This document shows, one piece after another, positions 24,979 to 46,319 of a stretch of DNA of 64,000 nucleotides. The stretch is from Candidatus Scatosoma sp. (GTDB taxonomy: Bacteria; Bacillota; Clostridia; Christensenellales; Borkfalkiaceae). Within the stretch, counting starts at the first letter, position 1. Each line of letters begins with the position of its first letter. The notes beneath the pieces were generated by a model. The model was not told the DNA's origin and made no database searches. It saw nothing but the letters and a program-made list of their open reading frames with translations. The position numbers were made by a program, and so were the translations under genes. The stretch is from NCBI GenBank assembly GCA_045658805.1, contig JAZOVQ010000053.1, forward strand, positions 10,837-74,836. The letters run 5' to 3'.

Positions 24979-25098
24979 ATATATTCCTTCTCTCTTTAAC
25001 AGGTTTGGGAAAGCCGACAAGCGGCTCTCCCTCGCCTTGTCCTTTACTGCATTTGATTATCTTTTGTAATTTTTTCAAATCCACAAAATAAGTGTTGC

Positions 25099-29163: not shown

Positions 29164-30927
29164 TTATTTTTTAGGCCAAACGCCTTCGCCCGTTTCCGCC
29201 AAGGAAGCGTTGACAAGCGTACCATTTGCTTGCAAGCCCGTGAATACTTCTTTCATTTGATCGGTATCACCGATAAACAATGCATAGGAATATTCAAGAG
29301 GTACAAAGTCGATCATTTTACGTTGAATACCAGGGTTGATATAGCTGTAATTGATGGTCGAATAGCTAGGAACCAACTGCGATTCGTCAAACGAGAAATA
29401 ACCCGTGTGATATTTACGGTTGGTTTCTTCTTGGAAGTAGCTAGTAGATTTACGTCCGCGCGATGCGATATATCTATCTGCATTGGGCAAACAAATACCT
29501 ACACCCCACTTGTTTTCGTTTACAAACGCGCACCAGCCGCCGTTTACCATTTTACCTTTGATACCGTAATAATATTCAGAGCCAACAACCTGCGTTTTGC
29601 TTTCTTTAATTTCGCATCTACCGTTTTGTTCGCCTACTTCTTTATCGAAGATAACCCCTTGCTTGGTTTCGCAATAGAAATAATTTAAGGGATATGCGAA
29701 ATAGGTTGCGGGCGTTTCCTGCATGGATACGGATACGCCGTCTACCCCCGTGAATTGCGAGAAATCGGTGTACAAGTTGTCTACCATCAAAGCGCCGCTT
29801 TCATCGAAGTAATAGGTTACTTCCATATAGCCGTTAGCTTGAATGTTGGTGTAGAAGAACCATTCCTGCCCTTTCATCTTTACGTAAAGCTTGTCGCTTG
29901 CGTATTCATAATCGATGATTTGAGGGGTATGACCGCCGAAGTCGCCGCACTGAATGGGGTTGTAGATAGGCTTGCCCGTTTCCGTGATACCTTGATAATA
30001 CGAATCCTTATCTTCGGGATCATAATCGGGCAAGTAGCCGTTTTCGTCACTAACGTTCAAATAATAGGAAGGTTGTACTTCACGGCCAAGGTCGTAAATG
30101 TTAACCAAGTTTACGCAATCGCTGCCTACCTGCGATACGAAATCGGGATCGACGTCACGGTCAATACAAATGTTACCATCGCTGTCCATATATTCGTATA
30201 CGTCGTCTTCCAACTTTTCAAGGTAGGTGATACAGCCGCCGTAATAAGGCGAGGTACCAACTCTCGACGAGCCGTCGCTTACGTACCATTCTTCCACCGT
30301 GTTCAAGGTACGATCGGAAATGCTTGCCGAATTGAACTTGAACGTACCCGTTTTGGTCGAGTCTACGTTTTGGAAAGAAATGGATACAAGCGTCTTTTCA
30401 TATGCGCCTTGCGCACCGATACGGAATGCGTCCAAGAAGGTCTTAAATTCCGTTTCGCCTGCCGCAATGAAGAACTTTTCCGAGTTGGTTACGCTGGGAT
30501 CTTCGTTGCTTTCATAATTGATATAGCCAACCAAGTCTACGTCCGTTTCAATATCCAGCTTCAAGTAATTTTTATTTTTCAAATTACTGCTGATTTCATA
30601 GGTCACGCAACCATTTGCTTGAGGATTTTCGGGTTCATATTGCGCAAGCGTTTTTTCCGTGCCGTCGGAGAACACTTTGGTAAACTTATAATTTTCCAAG
30701 GTGTAAGGCGCGGAACTTACGCCGTCAAACAAGGGGTTTCCCAAAGGCGAAACCTCGTCTTTGGGGAGTTCCTCGTTGGTAATATTGTTGTTACCCGAAT
30801 TGTTATTACCCGTCGAATTGTTATTGCCGGTGCCGTCGCCCGTCGTGTCGCCGCAAGCGGCCATGGATACAGACAACAAGCCTGCAAGCAATAAGCAACT
30901 TACTTTTTTAAAAATTTCTTTTTTCAT
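29164..30927 (-). CDS. 587-aa lipoprotein of unknown family
   Basis: MKKEIFKKVSCLLLAGLLSVSMAAC|GDTTG lipobox, then an Asn-rich linker (GNNNSTGNNNSGNNN). No catalytic motif recognised. Only 1 nt separates it from the upstream gene stop. Confidence 0.75.
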   Translation of the reverse strand: MKKEIFKKVSCLLLAGLLSVSMAACGDTTGDGTGNNNSTGNNNSGNNNITNEELPKDEVSPLGNPLFDGVSSAPYTLENYKFTKVFSDGTEKTLAQYEPENPQANGCVTYEISSNLKNKNYLKLDIETDVDLVGYINYESNEDPSVTNSEKFFIAAGETEFKTFLDAFRIGAQGAYEKTLVSISFQNVDSTKTGTFKFNSASISDRTLNTVEEWYVSDGSSRVGTSPYYGGCITYLEKLEDDVYEYMDSDGNICIDRDVDPDFVSQVGSDCVNLVNIYDLGREVQPSYYLNVSDENGYLPDYDPEDKDSYYQGITETGKPIYNPIQCGDFGGHTPQIIDYEYASDKLYVKMKGQEWFFYTNIQANGYMEVTYYFDESGALMVDNLYTDFSQFTGVDGVSVSMQETPATYFAYPLNYFYCETKQGVIFDKEVGEQNGRCEIKESKTQVVGSEYYYGIKGKMVNGGWCAFVNENKWGVGICLPNADRYIASRGRKSTSYFQEETNRKYHTGYFSFDESQLVPSYSTINYSYINPGIQRKMIDFVPLEYSYALFIGDTDQMKEVFTGLQANGTLVNASLAETGEGVWPKK

Positions 30928-30928
30928 G

Positions 30929-33625
30929 TTATACCCCCGTTTCGATCGAAATCATACGGATTGCAATTTCCTTACCGAGGAAGCCTAAATGAACTTTACC
31001 CAAATAGGAACCGATATATTCGGTAGGAATAACGATCGTTGCAGTAGACCATTCGTAATCTGCCATTTGACTGTCAATCGCGAAATTAAGCGCTGCATAC
31101 GCTTTGTTGCCTTCGTCAGGGTTGCCCGTAGCTTTGTTGGTGAAGCCTGCGGTGAAATCAAGCGTATTTACGTCCGTCTTGTTTTGATATACGATCTTAA
31201 TTTCGGTTACGCCCGTCAACAATACGTTTTGCGTCGTATGAGGAATGGAAAGATGTTCGCTCATAAGTTGCGAAATACCGATATAAAGCGCTGCGGACAA
31301 TTTTTCCTTCGTAGGATCCTTCTTGAAGATGGACGCCTTCAATACGCTATCATATTCGTACGTATTCGTGATTTCCCAATCCCACGTCTTATAAATATCG
31401 TTATAAGATTCGTAGAAAGGCAAGCCCGTTTCGCCTGCGGTGTAATCGATGCTCTTAAGCAATACTCTGCCCGTACCTTCGAAGGTCAAGCGGATTGCTT
31501 CTACCGAGCCGCGTTCGTTACGTTTAAGAGGTACGCTTACGCTGTTGTTGATACCCTTTTGTTCGGTATCCAATGCATATACGTAATCGGAAGTGAATTC
31601 GCCGTTAATCTTAAATGCAACCGATACAGCCGTTACGTTAGAATCGGGATACAAATAATATTGAAGCACTGCGTTGCCGTAGCCGTCGGTCGTACCCTTA
31701 TACGTTCTGTCAGCCGACGTTACGGTTGCGCCGCTTTCGGATACTTTGAACAACGTACCGCTTCTATTGCTTTCAAAGCTTACGTCTACCTTGTCCGTAG
31801 AAGCCAAACCGAAACAGTATTTATCGTTGAGGTTGACGCCTACCGAATCGTAAGGCATAAATTCGGACATTTGAATGTTCTCAATCAACAATGCGTTGTC
31901 CACGCCGACGGACTTGTAAACAATTTCAATCTTGGAAAGCGTGCCTTCCATACCATATTTGCCATACAAGTTTGCCGTGTAGGTCTTGCTTTCTTTCATG
32001 CGTTGCGCTACGGCAATGTCCGCCGTTACGGGGATACCAATGTTGTTATATATACGTACCGTTATCTTGCCTGCATAGCCATAGTTACGCAAGGTAATTT
32101 CCAAAGTGGTCAAGTCACTCAAATCAATCACTTTTTCATCGGGAACGGTCAAGGTGAAGCCGCTGGACGGATTGCCCTGCGCTCTGCCTGCCACTTCGTT
32201 GTTTGCGTGGAAAAGCAAACCGTTGCTCGTTTGAAGCACTTGCGCGTCGCCGTTTACGCCCGTTACGGTGTTGCGGTTTTTAGGGAATACAAGCCCTTGG
32301 GGATCTTCCGCTTGTTCCGCAGACACAGCTTCAAGCGTTTGTTCGCTGGTGTTTGCTGCGTCGGTGAGCGCTTGTTGCACTTCGCCGCTATCCTCTACCA
32401 CAACTTCGTGTGCAATACCTTCAATTGCCTTAATCAAGAATACGTTGGACCAATCGTCCTCGTTTTCATTTTTATAATTTACTTGGAAACGGAAGGTTGC
32501 AAGATAAGGCGAGGTACCCCAAATGGAATAACCGTTTTTATACACTTCGTAGAAGTTGAAATCAACGTACGTCCATTCGGCTTCTTCCGCCATTTCAATT
32601 TGGTCGTCGCGAAGCGCGATACCGCTGCCAACGCCGCTACCCGTATAGTTGGGATAACAGAAATCCTGCGTGTACGTTGCGCCCGTTTCCGAATAGATAT
32701 TGTTTTCGGCATCAAGCATTGCCGTGAAGTAAGCGTTTACTTCCGCCGCCTTACCAAGGTTTTTAAACCAAACGCGAATGGTTTGCGATTGCGTGATATC
32801 CAATGCCAAGCAAAGCTCTACGTAACCGTCACCGTATTTGGGTTGATAACCAAAGTTTACGTACGTACACTTTTCTTCCACTGCGCCGGTGGGATATTCG
32901 GTAATAACGTCGTAGCTTTCTACCCAACCTTCCGATTCTACGATATTGCCGCTTGCGTCCGTCGACGTCGAACCGATGTACGCTACGAGATAATCGCTAA
33001 GGCTGCTGGAAGGCAATTCCCCTTCTTCGGTGTGGTCACTCATATAAATACCAGCCGAACGCTTTATGTGCAAAGCGGTGTTGCCTGCAATAGGATTGTT
33101 GTAATCAAATGCGGAAGTATATTCGCTGTCCAAATAGGAACCGAGATACTTAAAGCCTTCTACAAGAGACGCGTCTTCTTCCACTTTATCGCCTTTGAAA
33201 ACCAATTCCTCTCTAACAAGCGCGCCGTTTACGTAATAGGAAACCGTATATTGTTCAACCCATTTCGCATACAAGGTCATATCCCCTTCTACGCGGTCGT
33301 TTTTGAAATCCCAAGGTTCGGTGCAAGCCGCGTCCTTATACCAGCCGTAAACCTGCAAATTGTCGGGGTTTTCGTCCGAAATGTACACTTTAGGTCTGGA
33401 TACGCGCTTACCGATGCTTACCACCTTGTCTTTGACAAGGTTGGTAGCAAAGGTCGTATTTACGTCAAATTTAATGGTTGCCGAGGTTGCGGGCGTATCA
33501 AGCGAAACTTCGCTGGACGTAGATTGCTCGTTGCCCGTCGTGTCGCCGCAAGCGGTTGCCGCAGCCGTCACACCAATCAGCATTGCCACGCTCAAAAGCG
33601 CTGTCAATAATTTTTTCTTTCTCAT
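30929..33625 (-). CDS. 898-aa lipoprotein with Listeria-Bacteroides (flg_new) repeat and unknown beta-rich domains
   Basis: MRKKKLLTALLSVAMLIGVTAAATAC|GDTTG lipobox, with the same CGDTTG junction as the next gene. flg_new signature VYGWYKDAACTEPWDFKNDRVEGDMTLYAKW. Confidence 0.75.
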   Translation of the reverse strand: MRKKKLLTALLSVAMLIGVTAAATACGDTTGNEQSTSSEVSLDTPATSATIKFDVNTTFATNLVKDKVVSIGKRVSRPKVYISDENPDNLQVYGWYKDAACTEPWDFKNDRVEGDMTLYAKWVEQYTVSYYVNGALVREELVFKGDKVEEDASLVEGFKYLGSYLDSEYTSAFDYNNPIAGNTALHIKRSAGIYMSDHTEEGELPSSSLSDYLVAYIGSTSTDASGNIVESEGWVESYDVITEYPTGAVEEKCTYVNFGYQPKYGDGYVELCLALDITQSQTIRVWFKNLGKAAEVNAYFTAMLDAENNIYSETGATYTQDFCYPNYTGSGVGSGIALRDDQIEMAEEAEWTYVDFNFYEVYKNGYSIWGTSPYLATFRFQVNYKNENEDDWSNVFLIKAIEGIAHEVVVEDSGEVQQALTDAANTSEQTLEAVSAEQAEDPQGLVFPKNRNTVTGVNGDAQVLQTSNGLLFHANNEVAGRAQGNPSSGFTLTVPDEKVIDLSDLTTLEITLRNYGYAGKITVRIYNNIGIPVTADIAVAQRMKESKTYTANLYGKYGMEGTLSKIEIVYKSVGVDNALLIENIQMSEFMPYDSVGVNLNDKYCFGLASTDKVDVSFESNRSGTLFKVSESGATVTSADRTYKGTTDGYGNAVLQYYLYPDSNVTAVSVAFKINGEFTSDYVYALDTEQKGINNSVSVPLKRNERGSVEAIRLTFEGTGRVLLKSIDYTAGETGLPFYESYNDIYKTWDWEITNTYEYDSVLKASIFKKDPTKEKLSAALYIGISQLMSEHLSIPHTTQNVLLTGVTEIKIVYQNKTDVNTLDFTAGFTNKATGNPDEGNKAYAALNFAIDSQMADYEWSTATIVIPTEYIGSYLGKVHLGFLGKEIAIRMISIETGV

Positions 33626-33640
33626 TTTTCAATACCCTTT

Positions 33641-34552
33641 TTATAATTTTAAGCCTGCGGCAAATTCGCCACTCTTGAAATACTTCATCGAAATAACCGT
33701 CGTAAGAATCAAAGGCAAGGAAGCAATGAAATACATTGCATACGCCGCGCCGTATTTGATTTCACCCGTTGCTACCGACGAATACATAATGGTCGTAATC
33801 GTTTGGTTGTTGTCCATAATCAAACTTGCCCACAAATATTCGTTATAGATACCCGAGAAGCAACCCACGAAATAATACAATACAATGGGAAGCGCCAAAG
33901 GAAGCGTAATTTTCGTGAACAAAACCAAATCGTTTGCGCCGTCCAATCTCGCGCTCTCGTACAGGGATTTGGGCTGTTGACTGAAGAAAGTTCTAAACAG
34001 GAACATACCCGTAACCTGCGCGCCGCCGACCATGGGAAGCAAATAGCCGAAATAGCTATCCCCTACGCCGAAGGTGTCGCGGATAAGAGGAATCAAAATA
34101 GGATAACCGATGATCGAAGGCACCAAAAGCACCGAAATGAACATCATGAAGATAAATTCTTTAAAATAGAAATTCTTCGTTACCAAGATATACGCCAAAA
34201 GTGCGCTGATTGCCGTTTCCAAAATAGCGCCGATAAGCGCAATCAAAATCGTCTTCCAATAGAAGGGCGACAGTACGCTCCAGGCTTTGGAGAAGTTTTC
34301 TTTTGCCGCTTGACCGATTTCCGATAAAATGGGGAAGCTAAACGCGTCTACCTTTACTTGCTCGTCAAGCTTGAACGAGTTGATTACCGTCAAGAACAAA
34401 GGCAAGAAGGAGAACAGCAAGCAAAAGATAACCACGACGAGGATAATCGTTTGCGCCAACGGTTTTTCGTGGGGCATACGCAAGCCTTTCGTCTTAGGAA
34501 GCTTTGCGGGCTTGGTAGGCATGGTGTTTTCGTATTGTTGTACGTTTTCCAT
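33641..34552 (-). CDS. Carbohydrate (CUT1-type) ABC transporter permease, MalG-like
   Basis: 303 aa, 6 TM. EAA loop YESARLDGANDLVLFTKITLPLALP. Confidence 0.9.
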   Translation of the reverse strand: MENVQQYENTMPTKPAKLPKTKGLRMPHEKPLAQTIILVVVIFCLLFSFLPLFLTVINSFKLDEQVKVDAFSFPILSEIGQAAKENFSKAWSVLSPFYWKTILIALIGAILETAISALLAYILVTKNFYFKEFIFMMFISVLLVPSIIGYPILIPLIRDTFGVGDSYFGYLLPMVGGAQVTGMFLFRTFFSQQPKSLYESARLDGANDLVLFTKITLPLALPIVLYYFVGCFSGIYNEYLWASLIMDNNQTITTIMYSSVATGEIKYGAAYAMYFIASLPLILTTVISMKYFKSGEFAAGLKL

Positions 34553-34553
34553 A

Positions 34554-37163
34554 TTACAAATCCTCCCCCATCGTTTCTTTTTTCTGGATCTTGAAGTTTG
34601 CGGCTACCGCAACAAACAAGAACAAGAAGATAAGCGTTGCGTAAGCACTGGCTTTACCGTAATCGCCGTGAATCATCATGGTTGTATACATCGTTTCTAC
34701 CGGCGTCGTCGTACCTGTCGAGGCAAGTATGTACGTTCTTGCATAGTTTTGTACGGACGCGATAAACGTCATGATGAAGATATACTTAATTTGAGGCATA
34801 ATCAAAGGAATGTCAATGGACACGAAACGCTTTACTATGCCCAAGCCTTCCAATCTGCCTGCTTCGTGATATTCGGACGGGATATTCATCATACCGCCGT
34901 AGAAAATCAAGTAACCGCCGACAAACGGGAAGCTCATGAAGATCAACGCCCAACGCGCGTAATCGGTATTCGTCAAGAATTCGATAGGAACGTCCGCGCC
35001 GATCAATTGGTTCAAGACACCCGTGTTGCCATAGATACCCGTACGCCAAATCAACATCGTTGCCATGCTGGGAATAATGCTGGGAATGAACATCAACGAA
35101 CGAATCCAGTTGGACGCCACTTTGTTTCTAATCAAAATCAAAAGGAAGGCAAAAATCAACGGAGGTACGATACAGAGCACCAAGTCGAATACCAAGAAGA
35201 ACAACATGTTTTTGATAGACAACCAGAAGCTGGGCTCGTTAAGTACCTTGATATAGTTCGCAAAATCGTTCCATATCCAAGCAGGTTTTTCCTGCGTGTA
35301 ATCGAAGAAGGACATTGAAATTGCGCCGATTGCTTCATAATAACAGAACATGAACAACAACGCAATGAAGAAGCTCATCGCCAAATAGATTTTCTTGTTC
35401 TTCTTCAAGTCTTTTTGAATTTCTTTCACTTTGTACAAGGTGCGTTCGTTCTTGGTTGCCAAGGTAAACCAAACGCAAAGCAATGCAACTACAATGGCAA
35501 GCACGAGGAAGGTGAAGAACAAAAATTGCGTCAACGATTTGTTTTCAAACTGTTCGGGTTGATAGGTACATGCATACAAGGTGTTGGTGGTGTTTGCACT
35601 CCAGTCAACGTTGGTGACCTGTCTTAAAACGTGCGTCACTTTGTTGTCCTTGTCCCCCGTCAACGTAATGATATCAAAGTCCGCATCAAAGGTGTGCGTC
35701 ATTTGATAATTAGCCATATCGTTGAGATTCACGATAGAAACCGTTTGTTCGTTTTCAAAACGCAAATACAGGGTATTTGCAAAATCGTTAATCGACAAAC
35801 CGTTGCCAAACGTGCTAAACTTTCTGTTTTCGCCAATGTCTACGGAAGTGATCTTCGTTGCGATATCGCTAAGGAAGGAACCGCTTTCCGCTACGTCAAT
35901 TGCACTCTTGTTTACGCTGTACAGCGAGCCGTCTAAATTGTCGGCGTAATATACCGCTTTATTCTTCTTCGAATATACGATACCGCTGATATTGCTGTCA
36001 CCAGGATACAAAATGGAATAATATTGCGAATCCACGTACTGTCTGTCTACGAGCAAGTTTCTCGAAGCGCTGTCGTACGATTCGCACCAAGGATTTTCGG
36101 CAACGAAAGTTTCGCTAATAGCGTCTTTTGCCTTATCCTTTGCATTCTTATTTTCTCGGTTATATTTGGTGGTGGTTACAAGCGTTTTATACACGTTGGA
36201 AAGAGTTTCTCCGTCCGCCGCCGCAAGTTCCGCCTCGGTAAGCGTATTGCCTGCATGCGCACTAAGCAATGCGCGGAAATGGTCCGCATACGCCTGCGCT
36301 TCCACTTCCTTATCGCGTCCAGCATCATAATATTGCTTTACGTTATCCAAATAATCGAATTCTTCGCCGTTTTCGTCGATATAATCCGCGAGCGTAAGGC
36401 TAAGTCTTACGATACCGCCGCCGTTTTTAAACAGGTAAATGGATTCTTGAGTGGCAACGAAGGACAAAACCCCCGTCTTTGCCGACGTCAACGGTACAAT
36501 TTTTTGCGCCGTATCCGTTGCGCCTTCCAAATCGAGATCCCAAAGCTGTTTCTTCTTATTTGCACCGACCTTCAAGTTTTCAATATCGAAACGATAGACG
36601 TAATAATTGTTATCCGATTGCAAAATCAATGCGTATAACAAGCCGCCTTGGTCGTCGTAGCCTTTCAAATTCAGCTTACCCGTTTGTGCGGTAGCCAAGC
36701 AATAATCGTCCGTTACGCTCAAGGAAACGCCGTTGTCGATAAGCTTGAAAATGTTACCGTTACCGTCCACCATGAGGTAATAATCCTCGCCGTTTTTACC
36801 CGTAACATACTTCGCGCTCCATTGGTTTAAACTGCCTTCCAAAAGCTTGTCATAATCGCCTTTTTCTTTCAATTTATCCGAAATTTTCGAAAGCGCAAAC
36901 GTTGACAACTGTTCATCTGTGAACGTGTCAAAACGATACATTGCGGTCTCCGTCAAAAGGAAATAATCCTCGCCGTTTTCCCCTTCTACCAACGATTTAA
37001 TCTGTTCGTTGTTCCCAAGCGCTTCCATTTCTTTGCTTGTGGGAATCAATACGCCGAACAAAACCGTTAAAAGGGTAAAAAGAGCAAGAAGCACGGATAA
37101 CACAAGCACCGTGTTTCTTGCTTTTTTCTTATCTTGATTTGTTATGCCTACTGCCATGGGCAT
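34554..37163 (-). CDS. Carbohydrate ABC transporter permease (MalF-like) fused to a large N-terminal extracytoplasmic beta-propeller-like domain
   Basis: 869 aa. TM1 (about aa 18-40), a roughly 500-aa ectodomain with recurring blade-like strands (GEDYFLLTETAMYRF, GEDYYLMVDGNGNIFKL, NNYYVYRFDIENL, ESIYLFKNGGGIVRLSL, KAVYYADNLDGSLYSVN, NTLYLRFENEQTVSIVNL), TM2, then a canonical 6-TM core with EAA loop HEAGRLEGLGIVKRFVSIDIPLIMP. Confidence 0.85.
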   Translation of the reverse strand: MPMAVGITNQDKKKARNTVLVLSVLLALFTLLTVLFGVLIPTSKEMEALGNNEQIKSLVEGENGEDYFLLTETAMYRFDTFTDEQLSTFALSKISDKLKEKGDYDKLLEGSLNQWSAKYVTGKNGEDYYLMVDGNGNIFKLIDNGVSLSVTDDYCLATAQTGKLNLKGYDDQGGLLYALILQSDNNYYVYRFDIENLKVGANKKKQLWDLDLEGATDTAQKIVPLTSAKTGVLSFVATQESIYLFKNGGGIVRLSLTLADYIDENGEEFDYLDNVKQYYDAGRDKEVEAQAYADHFRALLSAHAGNTLTEAELAAADGETLSNVYKTLVTTTKYNRENKNAKDKAKDAISETFVAENPWCESYDSASRNLLVDRQYVDSQYYSILYPGDSNISGIVYSKKNKAVYYADNLDGSLYSVNKSAIDVAESGSFLSDIATKITSVDIGENRKFSTFGNGLSINDFANTLYLRFENEQTVSIVNLNDMANYQMTHTFDADFDIITLTGDKDNKVTHVLRQVTNVDWSANTTNTLYACTYQPEQFENKSLTQFLFFTFLVLAIVVALLCVWFTLATKNERTLYKVKEIQKDLKKNKKIYLAMSFFIALLFMFCYYEAIGAISMSFFDYTQEKPAWIWNDFANYIKVLNEPSFWLSIKNMLFFLVFDLVLCIVPPLIFAFLLILIRNKVASNWIRSLMFIPSIIPSMATMLIWRTGIYGNTGVLNQLIGADVPIEFLTNTDYARWALIFMSFPFVGGYLIFYGGMMNIPSEYHEAGRLEGLGIVKRFVSIDIPLIMPQIKYIFIMTFIASVQNYARTYILASTGTTTPVETMYTTMMIHGDYGKASAYATLIFLFLFVAVAANFKIQKKETMGEDL

Positions 37164-37190
37164 ACCCCCGTAAAAGTATTACTTTTTTTA

Positions 37191-37231
37191 CTGTACGCTT
37201 TAAAGGCGGCAATCGCCTTTAAAGCGTACAG
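37191..37231 (-). promoter_or_regulatory. Perfect 18-bp intercistronic stem-loop between the solute-binding protein and permease genes
   Basis: CTGTACGCTTTAAAGGCG (37191-37208), 5-nt loop, CGCCTTTAAAGCGTACAG (37214-37231). On the coding (minus) strand it is followed by an A-run, not a U-run, so it is not a canonical terminator. Confidence 0.7.
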
Positions 37232-37243
37232 AACTGCTATCTA

Positions 37244-39034
37244 TTACAAGTTGTAGTTAGGATCCTTCCAGAAGTTTTCAGGCCACTTGTTGGAAGCAAC
37301 GAACGTCAACATATCAAAGTCAACAGCTTCCGACCACTTCACTGCAAACGTTTCAGGAATCAATACTTGGCTGTCGGAAAGACCAGTCATCAAAAGGTTA
37401 CGCCAGCATTCGGTAATGCAGCCTCTCGTCTTTTCCAAACCGTTTACGTATCTAACGCCCCAGGTAAGGAAGGGGTTAGCGTCAACGTCGCCGTTGAAGG
37501 AAATGGTTTCGTTGCTTGCTTCGAAGTATGCTTTCCATTCTGCAGGGATAACAACGAGGTTGTTCTTAACCGAGGACAAGCCCTTAGGTACGTCGTTGTT
37601 TGCGGCCAAGCCCTTGTAGTAAATGGTTTGACCATAAGGCGACATAACGAACTTAATGAAGTCTTTGTTCAATTCGTTTTGTTCAGCATCGCCCAAGTGA
37701 TTGATAATGGAAAGGAAACCGCCGTTACCACCGATGTCACGGGTAATCGTCGTATCAGGAACGATCTTTTCACCCACTTTGTCACCAGAGGTGTACGTAC
37801 CAGAAATCATTTGAGGATAATCGAAGTAACCAACGTCGAAGCCAGTAGCGTTCGATTTTTCATAATTGATACCGAAGCCTTGATAATCCAAAATGATTTG
37901 AGGGGAAGCTTTACCGTCGCTTTGCGTTTCGAACTTATCGCGAAGCTCGCCAAATTCGGTGCTGGAAACGTCCTTCATCAAAACGCCCTTCATCTTTGCA
38001 AGCTGACTTACGAAATCACGATATACTTCGCTGGTGAAACCAACGTAGCCAGGGCCGAAGGAACAATCTTCTTCAAAGAGAATGTTCAACATCTTTGCAT
38101 AACGGGGACCGTAACCGCTGTTAAGTTCAACAACGTCTTCCGTTTCGTCATAGTTAGCCCAAACGCTGTTCTTGTCGCCGCCCATGATGTATTGATAGAA
38201 TTGACGATAGTAATAGTCGCCATATACACGAAGCAACCAGCTGAATTGCAAGGATTCTACACTTGCAGCCGTAAGGGAGATACCCAAAGGATTGCTGTAG
38301 TCTGCTGCTTGCATTGCTTTAGAAAGTGCGATAAGGTCGTCCCAGGTTTCAGGATAGCCAACTTCGCCGGAAGCGTTCGTGTAACCCTTTGCGCCTGCTT
38401 CTTCCAAAGCAACTTCGTTTACGAACCAGCACGTTTGCATGATTTCGGAGTTCAAAATGATACTCTTGCCGCTGGTATCAGCTTCTTTGGTGGTGTAAGC
38501 TGCTTTTTCAAGTACGCTGGACCATTGAACGTTTTCACCACAGTAAGGGTTGTAGGACGCAATTGCCGAGTACATATCGATACAGTAGGAATACGTAGAG
38601 GTGTAACCAAGGTTACCTTCAACGATATCCCAATCGGTGTTGGGGTTAACCAATTCCGAGTTCAAGTTTTGGGAATACGAAGAACCTGCATATTGGGTGT
38701 TGATGTTTACTTGAACAGCGCCACCTTGCAATCTTTCATATTCATCTTTCAACGCGCGCCAGCCGCTTTGCGTACCTTCAAAGTCCAAGCAAACGTCAAC
38801 TTTACCAGAATATTGCTTGATCGAAGAAACGTCAGGCAAATAATCTGCGTTGAAGCCTGCGCCAAGGTCGTTAACAGACAAAGGCTGCGTCGAGATCATG
38901 TTGCTGTTGCCCGTGCTGCCGCTGCTGTCTTGCGAGTTGCCACCCGAGCTTGCGCTGCTGCCGCTGTCGCACGCCGCCAATACCGTCGTGCAAGAAAGAG
39001 CAAGAGCCAAGAACATAGTTAATTTCTTTTTCAT
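37244..39034 (-). CDS. Extracellular solute-binding lipoprotein (ABC, family-1 sugar type, long form)
   Basis: Start trimmed to the ATG at 39034 (AAGGAGGAATTT upstream), giving MKKKLTMFLALALSCTTVLAAC|DSGSS with a lipobox. First gene of the permease operon. About 596 aa mature, longer than typical 420-450 aa sugar SBPs. Confidence 0.85.
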   Translation of the reverse strand: MKKKLTMFLALALSCTTVLAACDSGSSASSGGNSQDSSGSTGNSNMISTQPLSVNDLGAGFNADYLPDVSSIKQYSGKVDVCLDFEGTQSGWRALKDEYERLQGGAVQVNINTQYAGSSYSQNLNSELVNPNTDWDIVEGNLGYTSTYSYCIDMYSAIASYNPYCGENVQWSSVLEKAAYTTKEADTSGKSIILNSEIMQTCWFVNEVALEEAGAKGYTNASGEVGYPETWDDLIALSKAMQAADYSNPLGISLTAASVESLQFSWLLRVYGDYYYRQFYQYIMGGDKNSVWANYDETEDVVELNSGYGPRYAKMLNILFEEDCSFGPGYVGFTSEVYRDFVSQLAKMKGVLMKDVSSTEFGELRDKFETQSDGKASPQIILDYQGFGINYEKSNATGFDVGYFDYPQMISGTYTSGDKVGEKIVPDTTITRDIGGNGGFLSIINHLGDAEQNELNKDFIKFVMSPYGQTIYYKGLAANNDVPKGLSSVKNNLVVIPAEWKAYFEASNETISFNGDVDANPFLTWGVRYVNGLEKTRGCITECWRNLLMTGLSDSQVLIPETFAVKWSEAVDFDMLTFVASNKWPENFWKDPNYNL

Positions 39035-39179
39035 AAATTCCTCCTTGTGCATGCAAAGGTTCGCTTTGCATACTCTTTGTTTTTTTCTTTTTATATACCC
39101 CCGCCATACGCCCGCATTTGGCAAAATGTACACGTAGCGCATACGCGTACGCACGACAAGAATATAATACCTTGCATTT

Positions 39180-39365: not shown

Positions 39366-40175
39366 ATGGAACAGACAAAACAGTATTCAAACGAAAATCC
39401 TTTATACGAGCATCTTGCGGACAATCCCTTTTATTTGTTCTTAAAGAAAGAGAGTTTTTTCTTTCACATTCCGCATTATCACGAAAGCCTGGAATTTGTG
39501 TATATGCTTAAAGGCAGCACTACGGTGCATTTGGGCAGCGAAACGTACACCTTGACAAAAGGCGACGCTTTTTTATGCAATTCGCAACAGGTGCATTTTT
39601 ACGAAAACCAAGACCCCGACAAGATCGGTATCGTTGTGGTTTTAAGCAATAAATACACGCATAATTTCCGTGAACTGTGCAAAAATGCCACTCTCCCTTC
39701 TTTCCTCACCGATAAGAAGGCGAACGTGGAACTTTGTACGCTGCTTCAAAATTGGTTGGACTACAAGGATAGAACTTTCCTCACCGATTGCGCTTTTGCC
39801 AATTTGTTGCTCGATAAGCTGATTAAGCTGTACGGGTTTGTGGACGCGGACGAGGTGGATACCTTAAACACCACCGCCATCGCGTTTATCAATTATATCC
39901 AAGAAAATTATCATTTGGATCTTTCCTTGGAAACCGCTGCCGAGCATTTTGGATATTCCAAAGAATATTTCTCTAAAAAATTTAAACAAATTGTGGGAAA
40001 AAATTTCCTCTCCCTTTTGAACAGTATTCGATTGCAAAAGGCCGTTGAGTTACTCAACGATCCCGATAAAAAATACACCTTTAACGAGGTATGCGCAAAA
40101 TGCGGTTTTAACAATTCCGCTTCCTTGTATCGACATTTGAAAAAGGTCAAGCAAGCCAACCCTCGTCTCCAATAA
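39366..40175 (+). CDS. AraC-family transcriptional regulator (cupin sensor + HTH)
   Basis: 269 aa. N-terminal cupin (FHIPHYHESLEFVYMLKG) and C-terminal AraC HTH (FGYSKEYFSKKFKQIVGKNF...CGFNNSASLYRHLKK). Only plus-strand gene, divergent from the ABC operon. Confidence 0.9.
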   Translation: MEQTKQYSNENPLYEHLADNPFYLFLKKESFFFHIPHYHESLEFVYMLKGSTTVHLGSETYTLTKGDAFLCNSQQVHFYENQDPDKIGIVVVLSNKYTHNFRELCKNATLPSFLTDKKANVELCTLLQNWLDYKDRTFLTDCAFANLLLDKLIKLYGFVDADEVDTLNTTAIAFINYIQENYHLDLSLETAAEHFGYSKEYFSKKFKQIVGKNFLSLLNSIRLQKAVELLNDPDKKYTFNEVCAKCGFNNSASLYRHLKKVKQANPRLQ

Positions 40176-40424: not shown

Positions 40425-43400
40425 TTAACCCACGCAAATTACCGCTTGACCAGGTTGCAACGTAACGCTACCGGAAACCACTTGATAAGGTTGTTCCGCC
40501 GTACCTACGCCGTAGCCGATAAGATAGCATACGCTACCCGAAGCCGTTACCGAAGGCGTTGCCTTCAAATCACACGTATCCGCGTTGGTGTACATCGTGA
40601 TCGTCTTCGAGCCGTTGGAAAGCGTCGTCGTTAACAATTCTTTACTGCTGTTATAATCTCTCGTCTTCAACTTGTAACCATTGAAGATGCTTTGAATTAC
40701 TTCAAATTGCGATGCCGCCTTTTGCGCCGCATTGTAATAGGAATAGCCCGACGTTGCATTGTTACCGATGCCGTTACCATAACCGTTACCATCGAAGCCA
40801 ACCATGGAAGCCGCCAATTCGGTTACAATGGGGAAGTAACAGAACCAAGAATAGCCTGCTACGTTATGCGCAGCTGCGTACAACATAGCCATATACAAAT
40901 CTTGTTCCGTCAACTTACCTTCCGTACCCTTGTTTTGCGTATGCGCAGTAATTGCTTGATAGAATTTAATATCGCCGCTTACAACAGCGTTCGTACCGTT
41001 GCCGTACAATTCTTCAAACGTCGACTTATATCTATCCGTGCTGTCACCCATTGCGTGACTGGTATAGATGTCAACGTAGAGATAATCAAGCTCGGTATAC
41101 TTCAACCAGTTGGTAAGATAATCGTTATAATTCCAAATGGTCGAGAAGCCTACGTTCTTTTGATACAAACATGCAAGGAAGAAAGGTTCGTTGCCGTTTG
41201 CCTTGGAAAGACCAAGTTCAGCGCAAGCCGCTTTCAACGCCTTAACCGTATACCCTACGTTTTGAACTTCGTTTCTTTCAGGTTCGTCTTTAAGCGAGAA
41301 ACCGTAGAATGCAGGATGTTGTACATATTCAGCAAAACCCGCGCGCGATTTAATTACGTTTGCAACCTGCGATTGAGAGCTTGCTTCCTTGGACAATTGA
41401 TAGAACGCTTCGTCACAAACGATTACCTTCATACCAAGCGTCCAAGCGGTATCCATAACGTATTTCAAACGGCTAGTATGCCATACGTCGTCCGTTTCAA
41501 AAGAAGCAATACTGCCTTCGTTAATCAAAAGGATATTGTTGCCCATTGCCTTCAATCTCGCTGCGTGCGCAGGGAGTTCATCAGGAGAAGTCCAATCGGT
41601 TGCATTTGCTTCGTTAGGCGACCAACCCGTGTCCTTGTTATAATATACGAAATATTCGTCATCCGAAGTCAAGATAGTACCCTGGTCGTCAATGTAATAA
41701 TTGCCAGACGTGGAAATACCAAGCGTCTTCATTTGCGATTCGGTGAACTTGTACAAGCCGCTGTACATTGCCTTATAGCTGAATACAGGCTTCACTTCTA
41801 CCGTTGCAAAGCTTGCGCTGGTTGCAGAAGTCTTAAATTCGTCATAATAGGAATATGCCGTAACCGTTACGTTGTGTTGACCTACAACTTCCGTCGTGTA
41901 GGAAAGTTCTTCGTCAGCCATTACGATAACGCCGTCACGATAATCGTTGTCGTCTTTTACAAGGTAATAATCGGCATTTTCTACCGCTTCCCAGGTTACG
42001 TAGTAACCCATACCTTGCGATACAACGGGCGTTGCAAGCTTCGTGTTACCAACGTTGTTGCCAAGCTCGTCACTCGTCTTGATCGTTTCAAGAATTGCTA
42101 CGCAATCTGCAAGAGTGCCAAGGTCGCCGTCCAAAATACCGTTCATTGCTTCCTCAACAACCTCTTCTACCTTTGCTTTATGCAAATCGGTATAAACGTC
42201 GCTGTTAAGATAGTTTTTCAAGAACGCAGAGTAGTATTTAAGGGTTTCGTTTTCGTCATAATCGGAAAGCATGAACGAAATGCTCAAGCCGTTCGTGGTC
42301 ATTCTATAACCGCTTACAACGTATACGCTATTACCGATAACTACGCTGGAATTGTAACCTGCAACGATACGGAAACCATTGATAACCAACGCTTCTACCG
42401 AACCGCTTTCTACCGTAATGGTTACTACCGAGCCGTTTTTCGTAATTGCCAATTGATAATTGCCCACTTTATCCGCAGTTTGACTTACGTTCAAGTCTTC
42501 GTCGATCGTAATATCAGCAACGCTGTTTACGTAATCGATAACCGATTCAGGTCTTTCGTTTGCTTTATAAGCCAACGTTGCAACTTCGTAAACGCTTCTT
42601 GCGTTTTCAGCAGGGTTATACGGCGTATAAACGTAACCCGTTTCGCCGTTGGAATAGTTAAGTTTCAAATAGCCTCTTGCCGACATAGAACGCGCGTATT
42701 GCGCAGGACTAATATTTACAAGCGCCGCTACGTACGTCCACGTGTCGCCCGATTGCGAGCTCCACGTGCTAGTAGGTACGTCTACAAAATAGCCAGCAGG
42801 GAAGGTTGTATGTACAAAATCAATATCACCGCTGAGATAATTGGTGGGAACGATAAGCGTACCTGCGCCTGCAATTAAGCCGTTGTTTACACCATAGGTG
42901 TATGCGTTGCCGTCAACGTCCACAAGGAAACGAAGACCGCTCTTGCCCGTAGCTCTTACAGCTGCACCATCGCGCATCTTAAAGCCAATCCATACGGGAT
43001 ACAACGTCGTATCCCCCGTCAACGTATATTCGTAACCAGCAGGATACAAATCGGGAACGGTGTTGATATCCGTCGTCCAACCTGCAAATACGTTGCCCGT
43101 TTGTCCATAAGTGTATGCATCCAATTCGGGAAGTGCGTACTTCCAAGCCGTTTCAGTGCTAAGCACTTCGCTGCCGTCATGAAGGGTAAGGGTATGTCTT
43201 TCTTCCCCTTCCGTCATACCAGGATCGCTGATACGAATACCGTTTGCAACCTGCGACGTGGTCGTAAATACCAATCTATTCGCATAAGGAGCATAGTCCA
43301 TGTACGTACCAGCAAGCGTATACGTTCTCTTCGTGAAATTACCGTCGATATCAGCATATACTTCTACCGTACCGTTGGACGCATCGATAAGCTTATAACC

Positions 43401-46319
43401 AAGCGTTACGCGATAAGTTACACCCTTTTCGAGACCCGTGCCGTTGTCATTGTATTCAAATGCGTCGATGTTACCATCGTTTTCGCCGGTATTGTAAGCA
43501 CTGGGGTGGCTGAAGAATTGAACACACTTATTGGTAGAGCCCGGACGATAGAGGTATATTCTCCAGCCGAAGCAATAGGACGAGTTTTGACCGTGGGTAG
43601 ACGTTACGACGTTCAACGTCGTATATTCACCTTGCGCGGAAACGTCGTTAGAACCAAGGTTCAAGGACATATCAAAAGTAATAGAGAAAGAATCCGACGT
43701 ATTATAACCATAGAAGTTGGTCGCTTGGTCTACGTAGAGATAACCCTTTTCAAATGCCGCCGAGAGCGGATATCCCGTGTTGTACAAATCGGACAAAACA
43801 TAATTATTTTCGTACGAGGGCATCGTAGCGTTGCCCAAATCGCCCTGTCTTACCCATACGCCGTTTTCATTGAGGAAGGTTACGTCCTCTTCCACTACGA
43901 AACAGGTCTTGTTGTTTGCATCTTCACGATATGCGTTGGTAGGGATTTGTGCGCCCTTCTTAATTACCACTTTGTTTGCAGGCGCCGCCGTACCAGCGGG
44001 CAAATAGCTTGCAAACGAACCAATTCTAGTCCAAATGTTGAGATATGCGTCACCGCCTGCCGCAGGTGCCGCGCTTACTCTCTTACCGTCAATTTCAACA
44101 AAATTGAAGAAGTGTACACTGCTTACTCTGTCTTGTACCTTAATGGTATCGCCGTTGGGATAATCGTGGTTGGTCAAATGCACGATCAAGAAGCCTTCAG
44201 AATATTCAAGCTTAGAAATATTCGTTTCGGTTTCCGTGAAATCGTGCGCCGTATATACAGCGTTTACAACGATGTCGTCACCCGTAAGCGTGTAGCTTTC
44301 CCATACCGCTTTATAGCCGTCTTTTTCAGGAACTGCAGGAATTTCACCGTCCATACCGTTCGATTTGGTATACGTACGGGTTGCAACGGTTGCGCCGTCC
44401 GCAACGAAAGTGATTTTACCTTGTTTTTCCCAGTTTGCTTCCACGTTATCGCTCATACGGATAAAGGTCACTTCTTCCGTCGTTACGTAGAAAACTTGCG
44501 TGCCGTTTTTCGCGTATGCCAACGAAGGGAATTGCGCGCCTGCACGGATTACAATCTTATTTGCCGTTCTTGCTTCGCCGGGAATATGTACGGCAAAGTT
44601 GTGACCAACGAATTTGTTGATCCACATCCAGTCTTCACTCGCTCTCGATGCGCCGTAATTGTTATACATCGAACGAAGCGTGAAACCGTCTACGATAATG
44701 TTATCAAAAAGGTTAAGCGCCAACACTTTTTCAGCGGAAACACCGATATTGTAGGTACTTGCGTTGTTGTCGTTGGGCGCGGGATAGTCGCTGTTGCTCA
44801 AGTTTACGTTGATAACGTTGCTCGATCTACCGTATTGAAGCAAGGTAACTTCGGTATCGAAATCCCCTTCAGGAATGTATTTTTCCCAAACGCCTTGATC
44901 GTTTTTAACGAAGGTAACGTCCTCTTTGGTTTCGTACACTTCTCTATCGCCCGTCACAAGCGCATTGTACGTAGGAAGTTGACAGCCTGCCAAAACGGTA
45001 ATTTTGGTCGCGTTGTTGTCGCCGGGACGGAAGGTGAAATAACCATAGTTACCCCATACGTTCAAGAACGCTTCGCCAGGCATTGCCAAAGGTTGATCGT
45101 CAATCAATACGTGCGAAAGGAAGTTTTCGCTTTGCGCGTAATATTTAGCCGATTGTGCGCCGCCTGCATAGGTATTGGGAGCGGAGCTGTAATTGCTGCC
45201 TGCAATTGCAATACCGGCAAACGCGTCGCCGCTGTCACCGAACATTCTAACGTCCGAAACGTCCGCTGCAATGGTTACAAGAGGCTTTTGCCACGAACCG
45301 TCCGGTTGTTTATAGAACGTTACGTCCGTTTTCGTTTCATAGAACATGTAAACGGGGTTGCCGTTGAACGCGAACATGTTGTTCATTGCATACGAAGGGA
45401 AATACGTACCTGCAGGAATGAAGATTTCTTCGCTTTCTTCTTCCATTGCGCGGATTACGAAAGAGTAGAACCCTTTACCCTTGGTGCCGAGGTTGAACAA
45501 ACCGTAAGCTTCCGTTTTAGAAGCTACGCCATCTACCAAAATCTTGCTTGCGTAATGGTTGCCCATAAATTCGGACGATTGATATTGCGCTCTGTTGAAT
45601 TCCGTTTGGTCGCTAATTGCCGCATAGTCGTCACCCTTCAAGGATACGCCGAGGTATGAGTTGCCGTACGTAGCGTCCCAACCGGTTACGTAATCGATTG
45701 CTTGCACGTCCGTTTTACCAATGATTTTGATGCCGTAAGCAACGCCCGACGACGCCATGGTATAATCACAGCCAGCGCGATAAACGGTTGCCGTTTTATC
45801 CCCCATCAAATAACCATAGCTGGGGATTATCGCGCCTTCCAAAATGGTCGCAAACGTGCCGCCGCCGATACCCGCCGCCGACGCCGCCGTCATGTTATCT
45901 CTACCCATGGAAAGGTGCAACGTAATCATGTAGCTCGGTTCTTGATTATTCAAGTCTACGCCGTTGTCGTAGCAGGTGGTACAACCCCATTCTGCCAACG
46001 TCTTATCACCAAGCTTAATGTGATTAAAGAAATCCATGTTTCTAAGCACCCAAGGCATATCGTGTTCGCCTTGATAGGTAATGGTGCCCTTTTGCGAGCC
46101 CCAATCCGCTTCACCAAGCGTAATGTTCATGGTGAAGTTACCGTTGCCGTACCAGCCAGCAACACGCGCGCCCATTGCCACGTCTTTCGTCGTGTACGTT
46201 TCAGCCGCTTGCGCTGTCGTGATTGCGCCAGGTCCAGAGAACACGATGCCGAAGCAAAGCGCGATGCTCATTACCAAGCCCATCAACACGGTAAGTACTG
46301 TTTTTCTTACTCTTGTCAT
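40425..46319 (-). CDS. 1964-aa secreted multidomain protein: 5 copies of the unknown module, 2 flg_new repeats, beta-sandwich domains, FN3-like domain, C-terminal TIM-barrel glycosidase-like region
   Basis: Signal peptide MTRVRKTVLTVLMGLVMSIALCFGIVFSGPGAITTAQA|AE. The N-terminal about 430 aa are paralogous to the 1339-aa protein (VAGWYGNGNF...LGEADW, DFFNHIKLGDKTLAEWGCTTCYDN, NGNPVYMFYE). flg_new signatures DGYKAVWESYTLTGDDIVVNAVYT and FAGWTTDINTVPDLYPAGYEYTLTGDTTLYPVW. The C-terminal region has FYGFSLKDEPE and GNEPFFLACLY strands, only weakly clan GH-A-like. Confidence 0.85.
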   Translation of the reverse strand: MTRVRKTVLTVLMGLVMSIALCFGIVFSGPGAITTAQAAETYTTKDVAMGARVAGWYGNGNFTMNITLGEADWGSQKGTITYQGEHDMPWVLRNMDFFNHIKLGDKTLAEWGCTTCYDNGVDLNNQEPSYMITLHLSMGRDNMTAASAAGIGGGTFATILEGAIIPSYGYLMGDKTATVYRAGCDYTMASSGVAYGIKIIGKTDVQAIDYVTGWDATYGNSYLGVSLKGDDYAAISDQTEFNRAQYQSSEFMGNHYASKILVDGVASKTEAYGLFNLGTKGKGFYSFVIRAMEEESEEIFIPAGTYFPSYAMNNMFAFNGNPVYMFYETKTDVTFYKQPDGSWQKPLVTIAADVSDVRMFGDSGDAFAGIAIAGSNYSSAPNTYAGGAQSAKYYAQSENFLSHVLIDDQPLAMPGEAFLNVWGNYGYFTFRPGDNNATKITVLAGCQLPTYNALVTGDREVYETKEDVTFVKNDQGVWEKYIPEGDFDTEVTLLQYGRSSNVINVNLSNSDYPAPNDNNASTYNIGVSAEKVLALNLFDNIIVDGFTLRSMYNNYGASRASEDWMWINKFVGHNFAVHIPGEARTANKIVIRAGAQFPSLAYAKNGTQVFYVTTEEVTFIRMSDNVEANWEKQGKITFVADGATVATRTYTKSNGMDGEIPAVPEKDGYKAVWESYTLTGDDIVVNAVYTAHDFTETETNISKLEYSEGFLIVHLTNHDYPNGDTIKVQDRVSSVHFFNFVEIDGKRVSAAPAAGGDAYLNIWTRIGSFASYLPAGTAAPANKVVIKKGAQIPTNAYREDANNKTCFVVEEDVTFLNENGVWVRQGDLGNATMPSYENNYVLSDLYNTGYPLSAAFEKGYLYVDQATNFYGYNTSDSFSITFDMSLNLGSNDVSAQGEYTTLNVVTSTHGQNSSYCFGWRIYLYRPGSTNKCVQFFSHPSAYNTGENDGNIDAFEYNDNGTGLEKGVTYRVTLGYKLIDASNGTVEVYADIDGNFTKRTYTLAGTYMDYAPYANRLVFTTTSQVANGIRISDPGMTEGEERHTLTLHDGSEVLSTETAWKYALPELDAYTYGQTGNVFAGWTTDINTVPDLYPAGYEYTLTGDTTLYPVWIGFKMRDGAAVRATGKSGLRFLVDVDGNAYTYGVNNGLIAGAGTLIVPTNYLSGDIDFVHTTFPAGYFVDVPTSTWSSQSGDTWTYVAALVNISPAQYARSMSARGYLKLNYSNGETGYVYTPYNPAENARSVYEVATLAYKANERPESVIDYVNSVADITIDEDLNVSQTADKVGNYQLAITKNGSVVTITVESGSVEALVINGFRIVAGYNSSVVIGNSVYVVSGYRMTTNGLSISFMLSDYDENETLKYYSAFLKNYLNSDVYTDLHKAKVEEVVEEAMNGILDGDLGTLADCVAILETIKTSDELGNNVGNTKLATPVVSQGMGYYVTWEAVENADYYLVKDDNDYRDGVIVMADEELSYTTEVVGQHNVTVTAYSYYDEFKTSATSASFATVEVKPVFSYKAMYSGLYKFTESQMKTLGISTSGNYYIDDQGTILTSDDEYFVYYNKDTGWSPNEANATDWTSPDELPAHAARLKAMGNNILLINEGSIASFETDDVWHTSRLKYVMDTAWTLGMKVIVCDEAFYQLSKEASSQSQVANVIKSRAGFAEYVQHPAFYGFSLKDEPERNEVQNVGYTVKALKAACAELGLSKANGNEPFFLACLYQKNVGFSTIWNYNDYLTNWLKYTELDYLYVDIYTSHAMGDSTDRYKSTFEELYGNGTNAVVSGDIKFYQAITAHTQNKGTEGKLTEQDLYMAMLYAAAHNVAGYSWFCYFPIVTELAASMVGFDGNGYGNGIGNNATSGYSYYNAAQKAASQFEVIQSIFNGYKLKTRDYNSSKELLTTTLSNGSKTITMYTNADTCDLKATPSVTASGSVCYLIGYGVGTAEQPYQVVSGSVTLQPGQAVICVG

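Follow-up and report, generated by a model that had tools for sequence, protein, structure and literature searches.

A 64,000-nucleotide stretch of DNA from Candidatus Scatosoma sp. (hereafter the window; assembly GCA_045658805.1, contig JAZOVQ010000053.1, positions 10,837 to 74,836 of the forward strand, numbered here from 1) encodes two giant proteins, protein A (open reading frame of 1964 aa, 40425..46319, minus strand) and protein B (open reading frame of 1339 aa, 25099..29118, minus strand), that are built from ten copies of one module. Our analysis revealed that this module represents a family of extracellular domains, so far uncatalogued and ~135–155 aa in length, composed mostly of beta-strands with three short helices. 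Non-catalytic accessory modules on glycosidases and on the surface capture proteins of sugar-uptake loci are well known; what is new is the family, and apparently the fold, which are missing from Pfam, NCBIfam, PHROGs, PDB and BFVD. We favour, with a confidence evenly balanced between belief and doubt, the view that the module is a non-catalytic, putatively glycan-binding unit, similar to a carbohydrate-binding module (CBM), of a Gram-positive polysaccharide-utilisation locus (gpPUL). Of all clues to function, the linkage of the module to sugar-import genes is the strongest.

Proteins A and B share ten copies of one module

An initial hidden Markov model from seven obvious copies set the module bounds at ~135–150 aa. 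With a profile built on 73 modules, drawn from A, B and related proteins, exactly five copies were located in A and five in B, each 131–156 aa long, in agreement with the roughly ten copies counted in an earlier sequence-only reading of the window. An independent 'far' profile, built from 229 modules of other proteins only (Z = 1e6), recovered all ten copies of A and B, seven of them at 59–106 bits and the three first-type copies at 25.1, 38.7 and 23.2 bits. Since the first-type copies are retrieved at far lower bits, we judge them by their sequences to be real but strongly diverged members. Copies inside one protein are only 20–30% identical and are position-specific.

The sequence-only reading had recognised the copies by a signature said to end each of them and by a following [ED][DE]V[TV]F-type motif. 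Both motifs stand out from chance: the expression x[IV]x[IVL]xxG[ATC]x[IFL]P[STA] matched four times in A and four times in B (means of 0.000 and 0.0005, respectively, over 2000 residue shuffles), and [ED][DE][IV][TV][FL] matched three times in each protein (~0.06 expected). The placement of the signature had to be revised, as it occupies the third-to-last strand pair rather than the extreme end of the module, with EDVTF forming the last major strand; moreover, in two of the three first-type copies a single residue departs from the strict expression (ATILEGAIIPS in A and LTVKEGALIPS in B). Pairwise comparison by BLASTP aligned A1–472 with B1–473 at 52.5% identity and A38–366 with B687–1011 at 41%, and a larger two-module unit is therefore present three times, as had been proposed, although the third copy follows the quoted motifs no more than loosely (IGDADW, GFFDHV, KTLRELGCVAFYDN). 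Weaker, out-of-register matches between A and B (24–29%) expose the internal repeat. The shared 14-mer ACGGGGTTGCCGTT pointed out earlier was found exactly at all three sites (26219, 28151 and 45352; 0 expected), each within a module-2-type copy.

Protein A consists of a signal peptide, five modules, other uncharacterised domains and a predicted C-terminal glycoside-hydrolase-like triosephosphate isomerase (TIM) barrel with a beta-sandwich; all coordinates that follow for A and B lie on the minus strand. Module 1 (aa 39–194, 45738..46205) is a diverged first-type copy that scores 11.2 bits with the A2 profile and 25.1 bits with the 'far' profile. It carries the motifs VAGWYGNGNF, LGEADW, DFFNHI, KTLAEWGCTTCYDN and ATILEGAIIPS and is ~59–61% identical to its nearest A-type relatives (family proteins P0040, P0039 and P0001), with lower identity to other relatives. 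Module 2 (aa 197–345, 45285..45731), which holds the signature IFIPAGTYFPS...NGNPVYMFYETKTDVTFYK and the 14-mer at 45352–45365, reaches 143 bits with the A2 profile, in which this copy is included, and 69.3 bits with the 'far' profile. Module 3 (aa 346–480, 44880..45284) was the copy used for structure prediction, and module 4 (aa 483–632, 44424..44873) scores 100 bits with the module profile. Modules 4 and 5 are separated by a 60-aa insert (aa 633–692, 44244..44423) that is kept in orthologues; by eye, the insert resembles a Listeria-Bacteroides (Flg_new) repeat (GYKAVWESYTLTGDDIVVNAVYTA), with no significant Flg_new match in Pfam. Module 5 (aa 693–824, 43848..44243; VVIKKGAQIPT...EEDVTFL) scores 87 bits with the A2 profile and 95 bits with the 'far' profile. 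The open reading frames and translations were as described in the sequence-only reading, but its range, which started at 43889, falls ~40 nucleotides short of the end of module 5 at 43848.

Protein B is arranged as a signal peptide, modules 1–3, three helical repeats, modules 4–5, more helical repeats, an acidic tract and a Cys-containing C-terminal membrane anchor. Its module 1 (aa 41–195, 28534..28998) is of the first type (38.7 bits, independent profile), module 2 (aa 197–345, 28084..28530) scores 152 bits and holds the 14-mer at 28151, and module 3 (aa 346–480, 27679..28083) scores 143 bits with the A2 profile and 106 bits with the 'far' profile. Module 4 (aa 696–843, 26590..27033; 23.2 bits, independent profile) is a second first-type copy, followed by a second module-2-type copy, module 5 (aa 848–988, 26155..26577; 120 bits), which holds the 14-mer at 26219. 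The two stretches at aa 481–695 (27034–27678) and aa 989–1299 (25222–26154) are filled by Ala/Glu-rich helical repeats of ~65–75 aa that start with Y[KR]A...Y..E.A..R, three in the first block and three or four in the second, the latter followed by the Asp/Asn-rich acidic tract. It is likely that these repeats serve as a stalk linking the anchor to the module groups.

The anchor of B (~aa 1300–1339, 25102..25221) ends in ...KAGCMGTVTGLTGGALALGMAAVALLKKKKED. A sorting-like signal is apparent both here and at the C-termini of family proteins P0003–P0125, with G-C-x-G-[ST]-[VI]-x-G, ~20 hydrophobic residues and a terminal KKK(K)ED/EN; we take it to be reminiscent of Cys-containing xxx-CTERM signals such as MYXO-CTERM. 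No NCBIfam model matched B, its C-terminal signal included. Protein A has no recognisable anchor of its own in its sequence.

The module is absent from family libraries and resembles phage T4 gp6 over its last third

A Pfam search with the whole of A and B returned nothing beyond a weak match on A to PF21515 (Gp6_2nd), a 66-position model with a curated gathering threshold of 27 bits. When the ten window modules were scanned singly, nine gave no match at all, and A module 4 matched Gp6_2nd at 16.4 bits (E 0.0079; cut-off 27) over module residues 100–143, which correspond to the signature. None of the ten copies thus reached any Pfam threshold, and the earlier impression of an unrecognised module was upheld. 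No match was obtained in NCBIfam for whole A and B or for the 73 family modules (seven of the ten window copies among them), nor in PHROGs for the same 73 modules, and searches of PDB sequences with the 7- and 73-sequence module profiles yielded chance-level matches only. No Pfam CBM family reached threshold in A, B, the ten window modules or the 73 family modules. The sole Ig-like Pfam entry was Big_13 (E 0.11 in one of the 73 modules), and no module had a Flg_new or Ig-like match at threshold. Matches to the autochaperone family AC_1 (six of the 73 modules, best E 9e-4) were weak and were taken as noise. A literature search by the motifs of the module, PF21515 or Scatosoma found no description of it.

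The similarity to Gp6_2nd recurs in other members of the family. Sub-threshold matches were present in ten of the 73 family modules, and E<=1e-3 was reached by 7 of 25 long members, with a best whole-protein E of 1.4e-12. Among the more remote relatives, residues 909–963 of P0054 pass the threshold at 34.3 bits within a module spanning 808–959, and residues 549–602 of P0047 reach 21 bits. Both hhalign (E ~1.5e-3, probability 17%) and hmmsearch (13.3 bits in a one-sequence search) placed the signature on T4 gp6 ITIPRGTRFLAYAKD..NPYNFVSREDVIAIR (residues 122–155), inside the region that Pfam assigns to Gp6_2nd in T4 gp6 (residues 105–170). At the level of sequence we regard this similarity as more than noise, and we conclude that the last ~50 residues of the module form a hairpin pair like that of gp6 domain II, either through remote homology or through a shared motif. 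Gp6_2nd fails to account for the module, covering only residues ~100–143 of 131–156, and of the five gp6 domains that Pfam finds in T4 gp6, A and B show none of the others. As far as its sequence can be placed, the ~140-aa module as a whole is uncatalogued.

An independent fold is predicted for the module

The AlphaFold2 model of A module 3, computed from the 73-sequence alignment, is confident (predicted local distance difference test, pLDDT, 92.5; predicted template-modelling score, pTM, 0.88) and comprises ten short strands and three short helices, consistent with an independently folding unit. A Foldseek search with this model retrieved nothing with E<0.6 in PDB or BFVD. The best alignment, which is not significant, was to a macroglobulin (MG) domain of E. 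coli alpha-2-macroglobulin (TM-score 0.41, E 1.8, probability <=0.18). The modelled fold is thus apparently absent from PDB and BFVD.

Over 308 modules, the most conserved positions (A module 3 numbering) are T7, L27, D31 (98%), Y32 (90%), N75 (80%), W77 (53%), G100 (94%), F103, P104 (98%), Y117 (87%) and F125. G100 and P104 belong to the signature, whose conservation therefore extends well beyond the strings originally quoted. The D31/Y32 and N75/W77 pairs are placed in predicted loops, not in strand cores.

The C-terminal domain of protein A resembles glycosidases

The C-terminal 483 residues of A (aa 1482–1964, 40428..41876, minus strand) were modelled by AlphaFold2 at a pLDDT of 72.3 as alternating beta/alpha units that form a (beta/alpha)8 barrel with an added beta-sandwich. 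The top Foldseek matches in PDB were all glycosidases (E ~2e-9, probability 1.0, TM-score ~0.45), namely the glycoside hydrolase (GH) family GH5 structures 4qfu and 3kzs, the GH140 structures 8t9w and 5msy, and members of GH30, GH39, GH13 and GH66, a resemblance to glycosidases of clan GH-A and its kin. After a beta-strand comes an invariant D-E-P, which we take to recall the acid/base motif of clan GH-A. No sequence match was found in Pfam, NCBIfam or PDB, and a word-indexed search retrieved 13 homologues. The barrel is assigned by fold from a medium-confidence model and its catalysis is predicted; the domain may represent an unclassified GH family.

Named members of the module family come from uncultured gut Clostridia

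A word-indexed search with A1–828 retrieved 35 proteins, none with Pfam domains, and the few that were named are hypothetical proteins of "Clostridia bacterium" metagenome-assembled genomes (MAGs). An exhaustive profile search of 1.84 billion cluster representatives (clustered at 50% identity) extended the family to 270 clusters at E<=1e-3, 173 at E<=1e-10 and 80 at E<=1e-30. The few organism-named members in these data all come from uncultured gut Clostridia (Ca. Scatosoma or Christensenellales-like). In a genome scan, the module-2 type was present in Candidatus Scatosoma, Christensenellaceae and unclassified Clostridia MAGs, with gut samples of goat, roe deer and sheep, as well as a fecal MAG, named as sources. 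The genus name Scatosoma stems from a chicken-gut MAG study (PMC8035907).

Across 178 sequences (the retrieved family proteins together with A and B), 1–10 copies of the module occur in tandem in each protein. A signal-peptide-like N-terminus was detected by a simple hydrophobicity heuristic in ~150 of 176 Met-starting proteins, with the first module beginning at about residue 41 (median). A C-terminal transmembrane segment with a basic tail is present in 105 of the 178, in 62 of these with a Cys at the start of the segment; no LPXTG motif was found among the 178, and a few have SPxTGD-type motifs. Many family proteins consist essentially of modules and an anchor. The commonest co-occurring domain is Flg_new (17 of 42 and 2 of 25 proteins), and Dockerin_1, Glyco_hydro_65C, LRR_5, Y_phosphatase3 and Metallophos also co-occur. 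Among orthologues, the modules of A are 59–65% conserved, compared with 61% for its putative C-terminal catalytic domain, and those of B are 50–73% conserved, compared with 30–47% for its helical linkers.

Module genes are linked to sugar-import genes

Genes A and B flank an operon of ATP-binding cassette (ABC) transporter genes (29164..39154, minus strand), delineated by Pfam matches, lipoboxes and synteny. Its 636-aa lipoprotein (37244–39154, minus strand) has a Cys lipobox and is solute-binding-like by position and lipobox, with no Pfam match and no solute-binding protein (SBP) family. It is followed by an 869-aa ABC permease (34554–37163, minus strand), in which BPD_transp_1 (aa 673–854) is preceded by one transmembrane helix and a ~560-aa extracytoplasmic extension that has no family match and is kept in related MAGs. 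A 303-aa ABC permease with BPD_transp_1 is encoded on the same strand within the operon. The remaining members are an 898-aa lipoprotein (30929–33625, minus strand; Cys lipobox, a single Flg_new repeat) and a 587-aa lipoprotein (29164–30927, minus strand; Cys lipobox, no family match at all). PDB sequence searches with the C-terminal domain of A and the 636-, 587- and 898-aa proteins found nothing but a Flg_new-type stretch.

An AraC-family regulator gene (39366..40175, plus strand; Cupin_2 and HTH_18) is divergent from the operon, and a gene for a cytoplasmic GFO/IDH/MocA oxidoreductase (23701..25020, minus strand) lies directly downstream of B and is kept both in related clusters and at the loci of remote members of the family. 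The order A, AraC, SBP-like lipoprotein, permease, permease, Flg_new lipoprotein, lipoprotein, B and GFO/IDH/MocA is repeated at no fewer than 12 loci, in MAGs of Ca. Scatosoma, Christensenellaceae and other Clostridia. The combination by which a gpPUL is recognised, a GH together with an ABC sugar importer and a regulator, occurs here within 23 kb (two BPD_transp_1 permeases, the SBP-like lipoprotein, AraC and protein A), with the GH predicted by fold only.

The linkage extends to distant members of the family. Sugar-type (CUT1-like) ABC importer genes (SBP_bac_1, BPD_transp_1 permeases and/or MalK-type ATPases) were found at most 10 kb from the module gene in seven of eight distant members, most commonly in the order SBP, permease, permease, module protein; the eighth adjoins two GH38 mannosidases. 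The hint of co-occurrence with ABC importers in the sequence-only reading was thus borne out both in close relatives and at these seven distant loci. GFO_IDH_MocA and AraC genes were each present at four of the eight loci, GH29, GH2, GH36, GH13, GH78 and rhaM were encoded nearby, and several loci have 2–3 module proteins. The permeases of distant members are ordinary (282–314 aa), except in the P0089 locus (L031), which has a 901-aa permease.

Two of these loci (L029 and L026) hold up to three module proteins, and Pfam recognises their SBP as SBP_bac_1. In L029 (GCA_054296525.1, JAZSXO010000031.1), module proteins with 5, 10 and 6 copies, one of them with a dockerin, surround the SBP and two permeases, and GH29, GH2 and GFO/IDH/MocA genes are neighbours.

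Elsewhere, the window consists of ordinary chromosomal DNA and encodes PriA, LigA, PcrA, threonine synthase and a P-type ATPase. Two other giant surface proteins, unrelated to the module, were also observed: a 1759-aa protein (53782–59061) with collagen triple-helix repeats, DUF4988, many BspA-type LRR_5 and three Flg_new repeats, and an LRR_5-rich protein of >1103 aa (60686–64000) that continues past the window end. Nearly all long open reading frames with family support are on the minus strand, the AraC gene excepted. The GC skew is negative across the window and the cumulative skew falls monotonically, consistent with a single replichore and a strong gene-strand bias.

A candidate glycan-capture system and its alternatives

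In the reading that we favour, A would be a secreted multimodular glycosidase whose five N-terminal modules hold the polymer, and B would be a capture protein, tethered by its C-terminal membrane anchor and set off the membrane by its helical repeats, that presents the module triad of A beside the ABC importer. The importer would then take up the released oligosaccharides for cytoplasmic processing, the GFO/IDH/MocA enzyme included; it is this whole substrate flow through A, B and the importer that we infer. The triad of modules 1–3, common to both proteins at 52.5% identity, would suit recognition of one target by A and B. The favoured reading is further supported by the glycosidase-like fold predicted for the C-terminus of A, by the dockerins or Glyco_hydro_65C domains of some relatives, by the signal-peptide-like N-termini and C-terminal membrane segments in the family, and by the position of the most conserved polar and aromatic residues in predicted loops. 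More tentatively, and with somewhat less than even confidence, we propose that the module founds a new carbohydrate- or other ligand-binding family with a fold outside PDB, and that it marks a glycan-utilisation system whose other extracytoplasmic parts likewise fall outside curated families and whose substrate is invisible to carbohydrate-active enzyme (CAZyme) annotation. In the same joint proposal, these parts would be the GH-like domain of A, the 636-aa binding lipoprotein, the 587- and 898-aa lipoproteins, the ~560-aa extension of the permease and the Cys-containing anchor signal.

Several observations weigh against glycan binding. Searches by sequence and by fold (Pfam, PDB) show no likeness to any known CBM, and tandem arrays that reach ten copies are no less characteristic of stalk or adhesin domains than of CBMs. 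The surface exposure of the conserved residues is deduced from predicted secondary structure only, and the GH assignment of A hangs on a medium-confidence model (pLDDT 72, TM-score ~0.45). The genomic context is that of a sample, eight distant members plus one closely related clade, and not of a systematic census.

The copy number therefore also raises the reading, which we consider unlikely, that the modules are a structural stalk or spacer like tandem Ig-like, Rib or Big arrays, projecting functional parts through the cell wall without binding a ligand. Such a role would suit 1–10 tandem copies placed directly behind a signal peptide, the compact, beta-rich character of each copy, and the company of other surface-protein repeats (Flg_new in 17 of 42 proteins, plus LRR_5). 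It fits poorly with copies that are diverged from one another and position-specific, each position being 50–70% conserved among orthologues, on a par with the putative catalytic domain and above the helical linkers of B. Many family proteins, moreover, have nothing to project besides the modules and an anchor, and the conserved D, Y, N and W residues are located in loops. Because the modules are as conserved as the catalytic domain of A and more conserved than the linkers of B, and because B has spacers of its own, we regard them as functional heads rather than spacers. Functional heads could in turn bind proteins instead of glycans, docking A and B onto the transporter (e.g. the extension of the 869-aa permease), the lipoproteins or each other to form a surface uptake complex, and this appears to us quite unlikely. 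Docking would agree with the tight, conserved gene adjacency to permeases, with the presence on A, which lacks a recognisable anchor, of the N-terminal triad of the anchored B, and with the fact that the one remote similarity that could be detected points to a domain of the protein-assembly component T4 gp6. However, distant members keep their modules beside permeases of 282–314 aa that presumably have no extension (the 901-aa permease at the P0089 locus is the exception), and dockerin-bearing relatives already own a dedicated assembly module.

The similarity to gp6 bears on two further readings. That the module belongs to an existing family (a Gp6_2nd-containing domain, a known CBM or an Ig-like beta-sandwich) and has diverged so strongly as to escape the profiles seems improbable to us. 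The Gp6_2nd model does match the signature, reaching 34.3 bits in P0054 and an E of 1.4e-12 summed over one long member, and hhalign and hmmsearch agree in aligning the signature to T4 gp6 residues 122–155; yet the match is confined to the final ~50 of ~140 residues, no window copy reaches threshold and the hhalign probability is 17%. The confident model, besides, has no PDB or BFVD neighbour at E<0.6 (TM-score <=0.41), and the PDB sequence profile searches were empty. The same weak similarity is the sole support for A and B as phage-derived receptor-binding or baseplate proteins, a reading that we find scarcely credible and rejected on genomic context. Both genes lie in a chromosomal setting that comprises a sugar-transport operon and the housekeeping genes for PriA, LigA, PcrA and threonine synthase; 23 open reading frames of the window, scanned with Pfam, contained no family of phage genes, PHROGs gave nothing for the 73 modules, BFVD held no structural match, and the family proteins have signal peptides and membrane anchors.

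Implications for annotation

For gut Clostridia that have been seen only in metagenomes, annotation relies almost wholly on homology. A locus whose enzyme, binding proteins and repeated surface module all lie outside Pfam, NCBIfam and PDB is invisible to CAZyme-based prediction of diet. With ~270 clusters, a confident model and a strong linkage to sugar importers and GFO/IDH/MocA genes, the alignable module offers a handle for finding such loci and for choosing constructs for binding and structural studies, and it may allow both a CBM family and a glycosidase family to be newly defined. Should the module prove merely structural, it would still be a useful domain definition for very large "hypothetical" surface proteins.

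Comparison with known systems

The Flg_new repeat (Listeria-Bacteroides repeat, PF09479) occurs in the same proteins and is likewise a surface-protein repeat of gut Bacillota, but it is unrelated in sequence, measures ~65 aa as opposed to ~140 aa, and has no match on the modules. Ig-like and macroglobulin beta-sandwich arrays share with the module the bead-like tandem arrangement, and the best structural alignment was to an MG domain; that alignment is not a match, however, and the module has three short helices and a conserved loop cluster, both of which are missing from generic Ig-like domains. Domain II of T4 gp6 presents the same succession of a hydrophobic strand, a Gly turn, a strand, a loop and two more strands, which in the module takes the form I-x-I-x-A-G-x-x-F-P-S...Y-x-T-x-E-D-V-T-F. 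This likeness covers about one third of the module, whose N-terminal ~90 residues have no counterpart in gp6, and the module is set in secreted or anchored bacterial proteins of sugar-uptake loci, not in phage tails.

The closest parallels in arrangement are CBMs and surface glycan-binding proteins. Unlike the module, whose sequence and structure have no likeness to any CBM in Pfam or PDB, CBMs are not usually found in up to ten copies. Like them, the module is ~140 aa long and rich in beta-strands, lies in tandem on the N-terminal side of a GH-like catalytic domain, occurs also on a separate cell-anchored protein encoded inside a transporter operon, and has dockerin-bearing relatives. Comparable systems are the SusE/F-type surface glycan-binding proteins of Bacteroidota and the CBM-bearing surface proteins of Ruminococcus and Eubacterium gpPULs.

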